Origin: Dermatophilaceae bacterium | GTDB lineage: Bacteria > Actinomycetota > Actinomycetes > Actinomycetales > Dermatophilaceae | Reading direction: 5' to 3' | Length of the DNA stretch: 64,000 bases | Assembly (NCBI GenBank): GCA_051645525.1 | Contig: JBOFBK010000518.1 | Location: 4,013 to 68,012 of the forward strand | Part shown: positions 36,335-53,889 of the stretch, in pieces | Layout of the letters: every line of letters starts with the position of its first letter | Position numbering within the stretch: the first letter of the stretch is position 1 | Program-made: the position numbers and the translations under genes | Notes under the pieces: model-generated | Told to the model about the DNA's origin: nothing | Databases searched by the model: none | The model's input: the letters and a program-made list of their open reading frames with translations, nothing else

Positions 36335-37216
36335 TCACGCGCCTCGGCGCCGGTAGGCGCCGGCCCGCGTGCCGGTCGGGCCCGACCCGAGCGGCCGTTG
36401 CGGTCGCCCGTCGTCGGTGGGAGCGAGCCCGTGCTGGCAGGTGGGGCACGAGAAGAGCGTGCGCTCGTGCGGCGGCCGTCCGGTCATCGCCACCCGGATG
36501 ACGTCGCCGCACCGGCGGCACGGCCGGCCGGAGCGCGCGTGCACATAGGCCTCCTCACCGGCCCGGTCGATGCCGGTACTGCCCTGCCAGCCCGTGCGCA
36601 CCGAGCGCGTCATCAGGCGCTGAGCCCGGCGCAGGGCCGCCCTCAGCCGGTCGGTGCCGACATCGTGGACCGCCGTCCAGGGGAGCACGCGCTCGAGGAA
36701 GAGCACCTCGCTGGCCCAGAACGTGCCGATGCCGGCGAGCGTTCGCTGGTCGAGCAGCGCATCACCGACGAGACCACCATGGGTGAGGAGGTTCTCGACC
36801 GCGCGGTCCTCGTCCCAGTCGGGCCCGAGCAGGTCGGGGCCGAGATGTCCGACGAGGTCGCTCTCGTGCGTCGTGGGCACCAGGTCGAGCATGCCGAGGC
36901 GTAGGCCGGCGGCGAGCCACTCGGCGGTGGCGACACCGGCGCGCAGGTCACGGCGTCGCCATGCCCGCTCGGCCCGTGGCCCGTGGTGCTCGAGGCGCCA
37001 CTGACCCTCCATCCGCAGGTGGGTGTGCAGGGTCGCCCCGCTGTCGAAGCGGTGCAGCAGGTGCTTGCCGCGGGACACGACGGCGACGGTGTGCGACCCG
37101 CGCAGGTCGACATCAGGCGCGCTGGGCCAGCGCAGCTCGGCATGGGTCACCTCGGCGCCGCGGAGCGCACGGTCGAGCCGGTCGGCGGTGCGGCGCACGG
37201 TGTCACCCTCGGGCAC
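36335..37216 (-). CDS. nei: endonuclease VIII / Fpg-Nei family DNA glycosylase
   Basis: N-terminal MPEGDT (catalytic Pro2), H2TH region, C-terminal zinc finger CRRCG...CPTCQ. Lies downstream of lhr, as in mycobacteria. Confidence 0.88.
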   Translation of the reverse strand: MPEGDTVRRTADRLDRALRGAEVTHAELRWPSAPDVDLRGSHTVAVVSRGKHLLHRFDSGATLHTHLRMEGQWRLEHHGPRAERAWRRRDLRAGVATAEWLAAGLRLGMLDLVPTTHESDLVGHLGPDLLGPDWDEDRAVENLLTHGGLVGDALLDQRTLAGIGTFWASEVLFLERVLPWTAVHDVGTDRLRAALRRAQRLMTRSVRTGWQGSTGIDRAGEEAYVHARSGRPCRRCGDVIRVAMTGRPPHERTLFSCPTCQHGLAPTDDGRPQRPLGSGPTGTRAGAYRRRGA

Positions 37217-37401
37217 GGCTGCTCCTGCCCCGAGCGGAGATGCTGACCATCATGTCGACCCTGGTGCGAGGGCGCGGCATGCACATCCCGTACCCGCTGC
37301 CCGGCCGCCGTACCGGAGACGGGTGACCGCATCATCGTTCGGCGCCTGCGACACGCGGCGACACGAGCTCGCGAACAGGTGTTCCAGGGAGAGCCACCTG
37401 G

Positions 37402-50555: not shown

Positions 50556-50571
50556 TCGAACAGGCGTTCGT
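50556..50571 (+). promoter_or_regulatory. LexA SOS box (Cheo-type) between a -35-like TTGGCC and a -10 TAGGGT
   Basis: TCGAACAGGCGTTCGT versus the actinobacterial consensus TCGAAC-N4-GTTCGA (15 of 16). TTGGCC is at 50549-50554 and TAGGGT is at 50573-50578. Confidence 0.7.
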
Positions 50572-50638
50572 CTAGGGTCGTCCACAGGTGGCGGTGTCGG
50601 CGGCGTTGTCCACAGGTTCCTCGGCGGCCCTCGGCGGC

Positions 50639-50660
50639 TGTCGGCGCCACCACCTAGCGT
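50639..50660 (+). promoter_or_regulatory. RecA-NDp (PafBC-type) like promoter, proximal recA promoter
   Basis: cTGTCGGCG-ccaccacc-TAGCGT versus tTGTCRgtg-N8-TAnnnT. It lies 84 nt upstream of the recA ATG. Confidence 0.5.
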
Positions 50661-50743
50661 CTGACCAGACCTCGCGACGAGACCGACGGCGAGAGCTGGT
50701 CGCCGGTGGGCGCGCCCGAACGAGACGAGAGCACAGGTGTGAC

Positions 50744-53125
50744 ATGGCTGGATCCAACCGCGCCACCATCCCCAATCCGCCCGCCGCGGGCACGGACGAC
50801 GAGCGGTCCAAGGCCATCACCTCGGTGATGGCGCAGATCGAGAAGCAGCACGGCAAGGGTGCGGTCATGCGCCTCGGCGACGACGTGCGGCCCCCCATCG
50901 AGGTCATCCCCACCGGGTCGATCGCCCTCGACGTCGCCCTCGGCATCGGCGGTCTCCCGCGCGGTCGGGTCGTGGAGATATACGGACCGGAGAGCTCGGG
51001 GAAGTGTCTGACGGCGGACACCTACGTCTGGACGGCGCACGGACTCGAGACCGTCGGGGAGCTGTTCGCCAGGGCCGGGCAGCTGGCGTCGTGCACCTCG
51101 CGGGTCACGGACGTGCGTCAGCTCGGGCTGCGCGTGGTCAACGAACGAGGTGAGCTCGAGCAGGTTGCCGCGCTCACCCACAACAACCGCAAGCCTGTCG
51201 TCCGGCTCACCACCAAGTCCGGCCGGTCGGTCAGCGCCACCCACAACCACCCGTTCCGCGTCATCAACGAACGCGGCCACATTGTGTGGCGGCAGGCCGG
51301 GCGGATCGCCAAGGGTGACGTGCTCGTCTCCGCACTGTTCGGGGCAGTCGAGGCAGCGTGTGGCGACGGACTGAGCGAGGACGAGGCCATCTTCCTCGGG
51401 TACCTCGTGGCCGAAGGGACACTCGGCGAGTCCAACAAGCACGCCGTCCGATTCACCAACTGGGACCCTGAGGTGTCCGCGGAGTGGTCGGCGCTGGCGA
51501 CCACGTTGTTCGGTGCGACCGTCAAGAACTATGACGGCAAGGAGCACGTCGTCCACGACACCGTGCTCCGACGTCGCTTGTCCGAGGAGTACGGTCTCGC
51601 GTTCGTCAACGCGCCGGAGAAGTCGGTTCCGCACGTGATCCGCACCGCTGGTGCGAAGGCGCAGTGCGCCTTCCTGTCCGCGCTGTTCGAGGGCGACGGG
51701 TGGATCGACCCTTCCTCGACGGTCGGCCTGGGCACCGCGTCGCGGGTCCTCGGTGAGCAGGTACAGCTCCTGCTGTACGGGCTGGGCATCCCGGCAACCC
51801 TGCAGACGTCGTACAACAAGGTCTACGAGCGCGACTACTACAGCGTCATCATCAACCCCTCCGTGGTACACCGCTTCCTCGAGGTCGTGGGCTTCCGCAG
51901 CGCGCGTCGCGCCGCCCAGGTCGAGGCGGCCTTTCGTCGGTCGGCGCGGGAGCCGCAGTTCGAGAACGTGCCCTTCGTCGCCAACCTCATCCGTGACCTT
52001 CGTGACGCGGTCGGGGGCGACCGGGAGTTCGACCGCATCGCAGGCGACATGTTCCGCCAGGACATGGTGCTGTCCTGCTCGCGAGAGCGACTTCGTCGGA
52101 TCGTCGACTGGGCCGAGCGGCGAGTCGGCCTTCTGCCGGCCGGCGCGGTGCACCTCGTCGGCATGCTTCGTGACCTGTCCACGGCGCAGTACACCTACGA
52201 AGAGGTGGTGGCCGTCGAGGACGGTGGCCTGCAGCCCACCTTCGACCTGATGGTGCCCGAGACGCACAGCTTCATCGCCAACGGCATCCTGTCGCACAAC
52301 ACGACCGTGGCGCTGCACGCCGTGGCCAACGCGCAGAAGGCCGGCGGCATCGCGGCGTTCATCGACGCCGAGCACGCGCTCGACCCCGAGTACGCGAAAA
52401 AGCTCGGTGTCGACATCGACGCGCTCCTCGTGTCCCAGCCCGACACCGGGGAGCAGGCGCTCGAGATCGCCGACATGCTCATCCGCTCCGGCGCGCTCGA
52501 CATCATCGTCATCGACTCCGTGGCAGCCCTCGTGCCGCGCGCCGAGATCGAGGGCGAGATGGGCGACAGCCACGTCGGTCTCCAGGCCCGACTCATGTCG
52601 CAGGCGCTGCGCAAGATCACCGGTGCCCTCAACAGCACCGGCACGACGGCGATCTTCATCAACCAGCTCCGCGAGAAGATCGGAGTCATGTTCGGCAGCC
52701 CGGAGACGACGACGGGTGGTAAGGCGCTGAAGTTCTACGCGTCCGTGCGCCTCGATGTGCGCCGCATCGAGACCCTCAAGGACGGCACCGACCCGGTCGG
52801 CAACCGCACCCGGTGCAAGGTCGTCAAGAACAAGGTCTCGCCGCCGTTCAAGCAAGCCGAGTTCGACATCCTCTACGGGCAGGGCATCTCCCGCGAAGGC
52901 GGCCTGATCGACATGGGCGTCGATCACGGCTTCGTCCGTAAGGCCGGCGCTTGGTACACGTACGAGGGCGACCAGCTCGGGCAGGGCAAGGAGAACGCCC
53001 GCACCTTTCTCAAGGACAACCCCGACCTCGCTGACGAGATCGAGAAGAAGATCAAGGAGAAGCTCGGGGTCGGGCCGCGGGTCGACGCTCCCGCTGTCGT
53101 CGCCGACGTCCCGGTCGACTTCTGA
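50744..53125 (+). CDS. recA: recombinase RecA precursor containing an in-frame intein (mature extein 361 aa)
   Basis: N-extein ...[14 protein letters not shown]-extein [29 protein letters not shown]...VIDSVAAL...[22 protein letters not shown]... Confidence 0.95.
51005..52300 (+). mobile_element. RecA intein (432 aa) with LAGLIDADG homing endonuclease domain, inserted in the Walker-A loop
   Basis: Cys1 CLTADTYVW. Block [18 protein letters not shown] motifs [10 protein letters not shown] and [10 protein letters not shown]. Blocks [22 protein letters not shown]. The +1 residue is Thr. Confidence 0.9.
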
Positions 53126-53166
53126 CCGGCGATCCCGGCCGACCCCGGATGACGTTCGCGAACTCT

Positions 53167-53200
53167 GCGATCCCGCCGCCCGAACGGGCGGCGGGATCGC
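53167..53200 (+). terminator. strong hairpin downstream of recA
   Basis: Perfect 15-bp stem GCGATCCCGCCGCCC-GAAC-GGGCGGCGGGATCGC, 42 nt after the recA stop. There is no U-tract, as is common in high-GC actinobacteria. Confidence 0.65.
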
Positions 53201-53251
53201 GCCCGGCCACGACCGGCACAACCACGACCAGCCCGGCCACGACCGGCACAA
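53201..53251. repeat. 21-bp perfect direct repeat x2 (GCCCGGCCACGACCGGCACAA), period 30
   Basis: Copies at 53201-53221 and 53231-53251, directly after the recA hairpin and upstream of recX. Confidence 0.9.
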
Positions 53252-53313
53252 GTGCGTCCGGCGTACCCGCGTCTGCGTCCGATATCCGCGCCTCCGACAA
53301 AATAACGCTCGAC

Positions 53314-53889
53314 ATGTCCGTGGGCGAGGTATCCGTCTCCGATCCGGGTGTCGCGGGCCTACCACCGCTCGACCCCGAAGCCGACCCGCGCACCCGGGGC
53401 GGCGAGCCAGACCCGCACGACTGGGCTCGGCAGATCGTCCTCCGACAGCTCACAGCGGCACCCCGCAGCCGGTCTCAGCTCGAGCAGGCGCTGCGCAGAC
53501 GCCACTGTCCCGACGACATCGCGACCACCGTGCTAGACCGCATGACGGAGGTCGGTCTCGTCGACGACACCGCCTACGCCGGCATGCTCGTCCGCTCACG
53601 GCAGACCGGCCGGGGCCTTGCTCGCCGCGCCCTGGCCCAGGAGCTGCGCCGCAAGGGCATCGACGATGACACGGCGAAGGCAGCCCTCGACGATGTCGAC
53701 TCGCGTCAGGAGGAGGAGCGGGCCCGCCAGCTGGTGACCAAGAAGCTGCGCACCATGACCGGCCTCGACCCAGTCGTCCAGACCCGCCGGTTGGCCGGCA
53801 TGCTCGCCCGCAAGGGGTACGACGCCGACGTCGCCAGGCGTGTCGTCCACGAGGCCGTGCGAGAGGCGCCCGAGCACCAGCGTGATTGA
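53314..53889 (+). CDS. recX: recombination regulator RecX
   Basis: [26 protein letters not shown]...VLDRMTEVGLVDDTAYA...ELRRKGIDDD three-helix repeats typical of RecX. The upstream in-frame part of the track ORF contains the recA hairpin and was rejected. Confidence 0.85.
   Translation: MSVGEVSVSDPGVAGLPPLDPEADPRTRGGEPDPHDWARQIVLRQLTAAPRSRSQLEQALRRRHCPDDIATTVLDRMTEVGLVDDTAYAGMLVRSRQTGRGLARRALAQELRRKGIDDDTAKAALDDVDSRQEEERARQLVTKKLRTMTGLDPVVQTRRLAGMLARKGYDADVARRVVHEAVREAPEHQRD

Follow-up and report, generated by a model that had tools for sequence, protein, structure and literature searches.

The locus studied here raises the question of how a normal RecA could be made from a gene whose ATP-binding loop is interrupted by 432 codons, and of whether the site of this interruption is a new one. 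It lies in a 64-kb window (by which we mean the whole 64,000-nt stretch of DNA that was analysed) from a metagenome-assembled genome (MAG) of a member of the Dermatophilaceae, for which an initial annotation, made from the sequence alone, had proposed an intein at codons 88 to 519 of a 793-codon recA. These boundaries proved correct to the base (Table 1). The ORF opens with a GTG at 50588 and its stop codon ends at 53125; we infer that translation starts at the first ATG, at 50744. The host protein is RecA, as indicated by matches of the precursor to the NCBIfam model TIGR02012 (recA; 5.8e-165) and to the Pfam models RecA, in two stretches (E = 2.8e-135), and RecA_C (2.1e-25). We regard a 903-aa ORF on the other strand (50654-53365) as an artefact of high GC content.

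Table 1. Features of the intein-containing recA locus (positions in the 64-kb window)
Feature	Position	Strand	Remarks
Predicted SOS/Cheo-box-like palindrome TCGAACAGGCGTTCGT	50556-50571	+	precedes the recA ATG by ~175 nt
recA precursor gene	50744-53125	+	793 codons plus stop; Pfam and NCBIfam matches
N-extein, 87 aa	50744-51004	+	ends at the Walker A Lys
Intein, 432 aa, Cys1 to Asn432	51005-52300	+	codons 88-519 of recA
N-terminal splicing (Hint) subdomain, residues 1-118	51005-51358	+	block A Cys1, block B T79/H82; TIGR01445
LAGLIDADG homing-endonuclease core, residues 119-300	51359-51904	+	PF14528; fold matches I-DmoI, PI-PfuI
LAGLIDADG motif 1, FLGYLVAEG, residues 130-139	51392-51421	+	ends in acidic E137 and Gly
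LAGLIDADG motif 2, LSALFEGDG, residues 224-233	51674-51703	+	ends in acidic D231 and Gly
Helical accessory region, residues 301-392	51905-52180	+	from alignment, intein lengths and helices predicted at 300-393
C-terminal splicing subdomain, residues 393-432	52181-52300	+	block F (D414, H421), block G (H431, N432)
C-extein, 274 aa plus stop	52301-53125	+	begins with Thr+1 (TTVALHAV...)
recX	53149-53889	+	NCBIfam RecX models down to 1.6e-57

The insert splits the P-loop between the Walker A Lys and Thr of GPESSGKTT, giving the junctions GPESSGK|C...HN|TTVALHAV, with the intein ending in ...GILSHN and its last base at 52300 (codon 519). Its removal leaves a deduced RecA of 361 aa in which GPESSGKTT is contiguous, as had been claimed, and the peptide expected across the ligated extein junction reads ...GPESSGKTTVALH.... 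All the hallmarks named in the initial annotation were recovered: the block A nucleophile of position 1 (Cys1, codon 51005-51007), block B T79-H-N-H82 (ATHNH, 51239-51250), two LAGLIDADG motifs, blocks F and G, and Thr+1. Domain searches returned both intein and LAGLIDADG matches, namely Intein_splicing (2.3e-15) and LAGLIDADG_3 (PF14528; 6e-17) from Pfam, and intein_Nterm (TIGR01445; residues 1-86, 2e-11) and intein_Cterm (TIGR01443; residues 412-432, 2.3e-7) from NCBIfam; because of these scores, the resemblance to an intein is not a matter of chance.

Structure prediction points the same way. The AlphaFold (AF2) model of the intein reached a pLDDT of 88.6 and a pTM of 0.90, and its best Foldseek matches were the TliVMA intein (7qss, TM 0.74), PI-PfuI (1dq3) and PI-TkoII (2cw7). 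In the model, a Hint fold is supported by its resemblance to three inteins (Mxe GyrA, TliVMA and PI-PfuI), while the predicted pseudo-dimeric alpha-beta-beta-alpha-beta-beta-alpha nuclease fold matches I-DmoI, I-Tsp061I, PI-PfuI and PI-TkoII. Among the domain hits, the C-terminal splicing subdomain matched the C-termini of the Mxe GyrA and DnaB inteins. The accessory region, which alignment shows to be missing from natural variants of ~297-377 aa, may constitute an extra DNA-contact domain. In class 3 inteins, a triad of block-B Trp, block-F Cys and block-G Thr (WCT) replaces the position-1 nucleophile; this class was rejected since position 1 is Cys here and Asp414 stands in block F where class 3 has its Cys. 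Judged by sequence and predicted structure, the insert is a full-size class-1 intein in which a LAGLIDADG homing endonuclease with two motifs is nested.

The host gene is a chromosomal recA. That recX follows directly 3′ is the usual recA-recX arrangement, and the same gene order is seen in two intein-free relatives. Upstream of recA, the palindrome TCGAACAGGCGTTCGT is likely a LexA operator, a prediction made because of the known actinobacterial consensus for LexA sites, TCGAAC-N4-GTTCGA; its core, GAAC-N4-GTTC, occurs twice in the 64-kb window compared to 0.56 occurrences expected by chance. Intein domains were not found in the other large ORFs of the window (Lhr, FtsK, RNase J, nitrite/nitrate reductase-like proteins and an oxidoreductase).

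Relatives of the intein are encoded in 224 species-representative genomes. In 73 of the best 80 loci from these genomes, recA could be parsed into exteins and an intein of 427-438 aa with the junctions K|C...HN|T, the same as here. Similarly, an N-junction could be parsed for 57 protein matches, 56 of which have GPESSGK|C, and a C-junction for 51, 50 of which have HN|T. Cultured isolates with an intein at this site include Fodinibacter luteus (88% identical), Nostocoides vanveenii and Ornithinimicrobium cavernae, as well as members of Micromonospora, Nocardiopsis and Streptomonospora. In more than half of the related RecAs (42/70 loci), there is also a second intein at site b, which is absent from the recA of the window.

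The splicing residues of this family hardly vary: C1, T79, H82, D414, H431 and N432 are invariant in 74/74 members, H421 is found in 73/74, and Thr+1 is kept in at least 73/74. The catalytic acidic residues E137 and D231 are each present in 73/74 full-length members, and two non-catalytic cysteines, Cys30 (73/74) and Cys358 (70/74), are also strongly conserved. Measured against the two nearest relatives (L001 and L002), dN/dS was 0.05-0.14 across every intein subdomain, with 0.05-0.07 for the Hint subdomain (1-118) and a nearby 0.09-0.12 for the nuclease core (119-300); values of 0.00-0.11 for the exteins indicate strong purifying selection. Such selection on the nuclease core would be compatible with endonuclease activity but does not prove it. 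We rejected a compositional case for recent transfer of the intein, whose GC (0.67) and GC3 (0.88) are too near those of the exteins (0.66-0.70 and 0.92-0.93, respectively). The higher dS of the intein (0.97 versus 0.35 for the exteins, against L002) was likewise set aside as a sign of horizontal transfer, as constraint on recA codon bias could explain it.

After removal of the intein, the RecA of the window is 90-97% identical to the nearest RecAs of the Dermatophilaceae, which at 344-383 aa are mostly intein-free, in keeping with a mobile element. Ornithinibacter has RecAs both with and without it. At the DNA level, the two intein-free recA-recX loci, L083 and L084, are ~90% identical, and the intein-less allele of L083 (953-2086) reads ...GAGAGCTCGGGCAAG|ACGACCGTGGCC... 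at the insertion point.

The identical protein is already present in NCBI (MAG, Dermatophilaceae). The NCBI record of the window's RecA starts at intein codon 2 and drops the 87-aa N-extein; altogether, six protein records, GenBank MAG and RefSeq entries among them, begin at this codon and have lost Cys1 along with the N-extein. The truncation stems from the choice of annotated start codon, not from the DNA. An annotation error in RecA records is thus exposed by the intact gene of the window.

Is the insertion site new? The initial annotation had raised the possibility of an uncatalogued site, and this turned out to be wrong: Topilina et al. (2015, NAR) place insertion point c of RadA/RecA at this position of the P-loop, with bacterial c2 members in the RecAs of Thermobifida fusca YX (96-517) and of E. 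coli, Enterobacter and Salmonella (65-486) (PMC4513877), and Kelley et al. (2016) refer to Lys|Thr as the "classic" P-loop intein insertion (PMC5050341). The intein belongs to the established RecA c (P-loop) allele, with both site and family known since 2015. What did stand is that the allele differs from those of M. tuberculosis and M. leprae. Their inteins, PI-MtuI (a, 252-691) and that of M. leprae (b, 206-570), also reside in RecA, are class 1 and carry LAGLIDADG-type domains, but are inserted at KNK|C and MFG|C, respectively, and both sites are uninterrupted in the window (KVVKNK|VSPPFK and GVMFG|SPETT). NF007072, the NCBIfam model for intein-containing RecA, scores 625 bits on the window's RecA against a cut-off of 1024.

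The c2 intein of T. fusca, at 422 aa compared to 432 aa here, is likewise a full-size intein in the Walker A P-loop of an actinobacterial RecA. Assignment to the same site rests on the published coordinates and on a c-to-b spacing of 132 residues in both proteins; neither the best 80 loci nor the 108 protein matches included the T. fusca intein. Different from the window's recA, the T. fusca RecA contains a second intein, at site b. The enterobacterial c2 intein (65-486) shares both the site and the junction chemistry (GPPSAGK|C...SHN|T), and the RecA of Escherichia phage Cyrano carries an intein of this type at residues 65-486 (K|C...HN|T). The c2 inteins of phage and plasmid RecAs align with the window's intein at ~34% identity and 100% coverage (E ~1e-58), an alignment that takes in the two LAGLIDADG motifs as well as the accessory region; their host, however, is a RecA paralogue on SSU5-like phage-plasmids and phages, as opposed to the chromosomal recA-recX locus here.

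More distant counterparts occupy P-loops elsewhere. In RadA, the archaeal counterpart of RecA, the Pyrococcus horikoshii intein (c1; PDB 4e2t, 4e2u and 2lqm) occupies the homologous site, where the P-loop ends, but it is a mini-intein without an endonuclease, its sequence similarity is marginal (E 7e-4 to 1e-3) and it is regarded as an independent invasion (PMC4513877). Other Lys|Thr inteins are known from phage SF2/UvsW-like helicases, mycobacteriophage TerL1-a, archaeal RFC and IF-2 (PMC5050341); these differ in host protein and are distant in sequence. From the P-loop onward, the window's protein can be aligned with the intein models of NCBIfam for RFC and IF-2, and the helicase intein of Enterococcus phage Riverwalk (GGGK|C...NHN|T) is 32.7% identical to the window's intein over its full length. 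That is, inteins of a chromosomal RecA, a phage-plasmid RecA and a phage SF2 helicase are 32-34% identical end to end.

Following the canonical pathway for the splicing steps, we propose this course of events. Transcribed probably under LexA control via the upstream SOS box, recA would be translated as a 793-aa precursor unable to form a P-loop. An N-S acyl shift at Cys1 would be followed by attack of the Thr+1 hydroxyl on the thioester, yielding a branched intermediate; cyclization of Asn432, helped by His431 and by block-B and block-F residues, would then release the intein, and an O-N shift would restore GPESSGK-TT and a normal 361-aa RecA. Autocatalytic splicing is suggested by the intact residues together with purifying selection on a recA that would otherwise be inactive. 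The freed 432-aa intein, probably still an active nuclease, would cut intein-less recA near GGGAAG|ACGACC and spread via double-strand-break repair; this homing may account for the patchy distribution among close relatives, and site-specific cleavage of the intein-less allele is suggested by that patchiness and by the nuclease-core dN/dS of ~0.1. We put the probability of this reading, a class-1 LAGLIDADG intein of the RecA c allele in chromosomal recA with the proposed splicing and homing, at roughly 0.93.

Could the insertion instead be a non-splicing one, leaving a recA pseudogene or a working fragment, or be a chimera assembled within the metagenome bin? The source is indeed a MAG, and the NCBI record without the N-extein would naively be taken for a truncated gene, but that truncation goes back to the annotated start. 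Moreover, the frame is open through both junctions, the splicing residues are all intact, the exteins are under the selection described above and cultured isolates share the architecture; this explanation is already largely refuted, and we give it almost no credence. A different doubt concerns the endonuclease, which might be inactive, making the intein a fixed, vertically inherited passenger whose imprecise loss would destroy the P-loop and whose nuclease core is conserved through constraint on folding or splicing or through another role. The family does decay, as seen from its natural variants of 297-377 aa, the intein is nearly equilibrated with its host in composition, and there are many carriers over several actinobacterial orders. 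Yet both catalytic acidic residues persist in 73/74 full-length members, the dN/dS of the core is near that of the splicing domain, and presence and absence alternate among RecAs of 90-97% identity, within Ornithinibacter too. We consider the passenger explanation rather unlikely.

The intein might also have been kept as a conditional switch, its splicing answering stress (redox, temperature or metals) and thereby gating RecA and the SOS response posttranslationally. A splicing gate on RecA/SOS is an existing hypothesis for P-loop inteins, and splicing-based regulation as a general hypothesis has been published (PMC4760082). Both P. horikoshii RadA and the DnaB of mycobacteria have been suggested to contain switches of this kind. 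In favor of a switch, placement in the P-loop leaves the precursor inactive by construction, extein-controlled conditional splicing has experimental precedent at the homologous site of P. horikoshii RadA (PMC4513877), and Cys30 and Cys358 are conserved besides Cys1. Against it, RecA regulation in this lineage does not require the intein, given that the closest relatives lack it; with Thr at position +1, a disulfide trap between Cys1 and Cys+1 as in other inteins is impossible; and the conserved cysteines may be structural. On balance, a switch appears improbable. More speculative still, and a long shot, are the ideas that Cys1 with Cys30 and Cys358 might act as a reversible redox trap for RecA maturation, or that one intein lineage might have moved ectopically between the GK|T P-loops of unrelated ATPases.

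The preferred reading, a splicing and homing intein of the RecA c allele, makes the find real but ordinary: site, intein family and exact protein were already public. The literature searched yielded no experimental study of a P-loop intein in a bacterial RecA. The intein of the window offers a clean, full-length and apparently active example of the RecA c allele, and since very close intein-free alleles exist, the two would lend themselves to paired experiments on homing or conditional splicing. Were the redox trap true, SOS induction would be redox-dependent in Dermatophilaceae of activated sludge and soil, with a posttranslational layer of control above the LexA box upstream of recA.

The insert that interrupts recA in the window is a real, well-preserved LAGLIDADG intein at the P-loop site of RecA, RecA-c. 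Counted from the first ATG, recA has 793 codons, and its 432-aa insert, which opens with CLTADTYVW, splits GPESSGK|TT between Lys and Thr; joining the exteins gives a 361-aa RecA with the Walker A motif whole. Pfam splits the RecA domain in two (E=2.8e-135) and also recovers RecA_C, with LAGLIDADG_3 (6e-17) and Intein_splicing (2.3e-15) between the two RecA parts, and the NCBIfam models intein_Nterm and intein_Cterm cover insert residues 1-86 and 412-432. Across N-extein, intein and C-extein, neither GC (0.70, 0.67 and 0.66) nor GC3 (0.92, 0.88 and 0.93) breaks at the junctions. Our re-derivation of ORF, codon positions and junctions bears out the coordinates and all motifs quoted in the initial annotation, as well as its statement that the insertion allele differs from the classical mycobacterial ones: the sites used in M. 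tuberculosis (a) and M. leprae (b) are both contiguous in the window's RecA.

Features of the recA region and of the intein
Feature	Window position	Intein residues	Remarks
Palindrome GAACAGGTGTTC	37373-37384		between Lhr helicase gene 3' end and start of minus-strand ORF 36335-37216
Cheo/SOS-box-like palindrome TCGAACAGGCGTTCGT	50556-50571		~175 nt upstream of recA ATG
recA-containing ORF	50588-53125		+ strand; ORF scan
First ATG of recA	50744
Intein	51005-52300	1-432	recA codons 88-519
N-terminal Hint half		1-118	block A Cys1; block B T79..H82
Cys30	51092-51094	30	non-catalytic
Endonuclease core		119-300	FLGYLVAE137G and LSALFEGD231G
Helical accessory region	51905-52180	301-392
Cys358	52076-52078	358	non-catalytic
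C-terminal Hint strands		393-432	block F D414/H421; block G H431-N432; then Thr+1
recX	53149-53889		directly downstream of recA; NCBIfam

The initial annotation had also raised the possibility that the site was uncatalogued, a suggestion we withdraw, as the GK|T site is already listed. The survey of RadA/RecA inteins by Topilina et al. 2015 (NAR 43:6631, PMC4513877) distinguishes five insertion points, a to e; point c is used in RadA of archaea (c1, for instance P. horikoshii) and in RecA of bacteria (c2). Members of c2 include Thermobifida fusca YX (intein 96-517, plus a b-site intein 650-1006) and the RecAs of E. coli, Enterobacter and Salmonella (intein 65-486) (PMC4513877). Unlike T. fusca, the window has an empty b site; the 132 residues between the two T. 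fusca inteins match exactly the distance from the window's c site to that empty site. In phage and plasmid collections, tblastn showed that the RecA of SSU5-like phage-plasmids and phages carries an intein with 34% identity over the full length; the copy in Escherichia phage Cyrano spans residues 65-486 (GPPSAGK|C...SHN|T), in agreement with the published c2 coordinates. This spacing, the phage and plasmid RecA intein at 65-486 and the description of Lys|Thr as the "classic" P-loop intein insertion (Kelley et al. 2016, PMC5050341) together tie the window's intein to c2. Both its kind and its site are known, and abundant in Actinomycetota; Novikova et al. 2016 (PMC4760082) counted 56 RecA inteins across Actinobacteria, Cyanobacteria and Proteobacteria.

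Among 5.8 billion proteins, the identical intein appeared in 'MAG: recombinase RecA [Dermatophilaceae bacterium]', beside 107 more RecA-embedded relatives; parsable junctions read GPESSGK|C in 56/57 and HN|T in 50/51 matches. A scan of one genome per GTDB species found relatives encoded in 224 genomes, the best 80 with 59-88% full-length identity, and 73 of these 80 loci carry K|C...HN|T within recA around inteins of 427-438 aa. Among the hosts are Fodinibacter luteus (88%), an Ornithinibacter MAG (87%), Intrasporangium, Nostocoides vanveenii, Ornithinimicrobium cavernae, Micromonospora, Nocardiopsis, Streptomonospora, Allonocardiopsis, Pseudonocardia and Acidimicrobiia MAGs. Most relatives with a P-loop intein (42/70 parsed loci: L001, L004-L008, L010, L011, L013-L015 and others) have another one ~132 codons further on, at the b site known from M. 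leprae (GVMFG|C...), as T. fusca does; the window and L002, the Ornithinibacter MAG locus, have the c-site intein alone.

Six 'recombinase RecA' records, mostly NCBI-sourced (P0001, P0005, P0009, P0014, P0015 and P0034, among them RefSeq entries from Plantactinospora and Streptomonospora), start with 'M' at intein codon 2, a CTG taken as start (window 50744-51010). These entries of 633-756 aa are without Cys1 and the entire 87-aa N-extein; the DNA of the loci is intact (...GPESSGK|CL...). Start sites of RecA-c intein genes seem to be misannotated repeatedly.

Every PDB sequence match to the intein was itself an intein or an intein endonuclease (PI-TkoII, Mxe GyrA, DnaB, PI-PfuI, VMA and Pho RadA). 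A confident AlphaFold2 model made from a nine-sequence family alignment (pLDDT 88.6, pTM 0.90) had as Foldseek neighbours the TliVMA intein (7qss, TM 0.74), PI-PfuI, PI-TkoII and PI-SceI, and its central domain matched I-DmoI-type LAGLIDADG enzymes. Because it combines Cys1 with Asp instead of Cys at the diagnostic block-F position, we assign the intein by sequence to class 1, not class 3. The accessory region, ~90 aa between nuclease core and C-terminal splicing strands, has no match in Pfam and is cleanly absent from natural variants of ~360-377 aa that retain both LAGLIDADG motifs; it may make extra DNA contacts.

Over 74 full-length members, the catalytic splicing residues are all invariant or nearly so, and each LAGLIDADG acidic residue is retained in 73. 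Against the two nearest relatives, dN/dS was 0.05-0.07 for the N-terminal splicing half, 0.09-0.12 for the nuclease core, 0.09-0.14 for the accessory region and 0.00-0.11 for the exteins; purifying selection on the nuclease is therefore about as strong as on the splicing domain. Shorter variants (297-377 aa), which lack the accessory region or more, are evidence of decay elsewhere in the family. Relative to L002, intein dS is ~2.7x that of the flanking exteins (0.97 vs 0.35); codon-bias constraint acting on recA, or a separate intein history, could account for this.

The nearest matches of the spliced RecA (90-97% identity) are mostly 344-383 aa long and therefore intein-free; they belong to Humibacillus, Phycicoccus, Segeticoccus, Lapillicoccus, Flexivirga, a second Ornithinibacter MAG and MAGs of Dermatophilaceae. 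In two intein-free recA-recX loci, recA DNA is ~90% identical to the window's exteins and the empty site reads ...GAGAGCTCGGGCAAG|ACGACCGTGGCC.... Presence that varies among such similar alleles, combined with conservation of the nuclease, is the textbook mark of a homing element. The insert is best explained by ordinary class-1 protein splicing, which would restore the P-loop, with homing driven by the nested LAGLIDADG enzyme. That recA might instead be a pseudogene or an assembly artefact is effectively excluded by its open reading frame, the purifying selection on its exteins and the same architecture in cultured isolates.

The initial annotation had further proposed that splicing might gate RecA activity. 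Conditional splicing of a P-loop intein is a legitimate, if less probable, hypothesis, and an ATP-sparing and regulatory role has been discussed for RecA and RadA inteins (PMC4760082). It gains some weight from the P-loop position, from the precedent of RadA and from two non-catalytic cysteines that the family conserves (C30 in 73/74 members, C358 in 70/74); against it, near-identical RecAs work without an intein and the +1 residue is Thr. The RecA intein of phage Cyrano appears to keep Cys30 as well (ATCTTRD).

The DNA of the window is actinobacterial and chromosomal. It encodes nitrate and nitrite reductase-like proteins, RNase J, FtsK, the Lhr helicase, ABC transporters and a LysR regulator, followed by recA-recX. 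It holds two GAAC-N4-GTTC palindromes (0.56 expected), both candidate LexA operators. Since one SOS-box-like palindrome precedes recA, ordinary LexA transcriptional control probably operates beside the intein.

Related inteins also occur on phages and plasmids. Enterococcus phage Riverwalk (2501-3772) encodes a full-length homologue, ~32% identical with nuclease and accessory regions included, in the P-loop of an SF2/UvsW-like DNA helicase (GGGK|C...NHN|T), and helicase P-loop homologues occur in Bacillus, Staphylococcus and Listeria phages. One intein lineage thus seems, by sequence, to occupy GK|T sites of different ATPases. Plasmid matches (H16-H30) cover ~110 kb plasmids in E. coli, Klebsiella, Enterobacter and others (253 records), where RefSeq often labels the intein stretch just 'LAGLIDADG family homing endonuclease'. 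The literature's 'E. coli RecA intein' appears to reside on non-mobilizable ~110 kb plasmids and allied phages (SSU5-like phage-plasmids), not in chromosomal recA.

The most useful by-products of this analysis are the annotation error in RecA records and the natural pairing of alleles with the intein (the window) and without it (close relatives), which is convenient for experiments.
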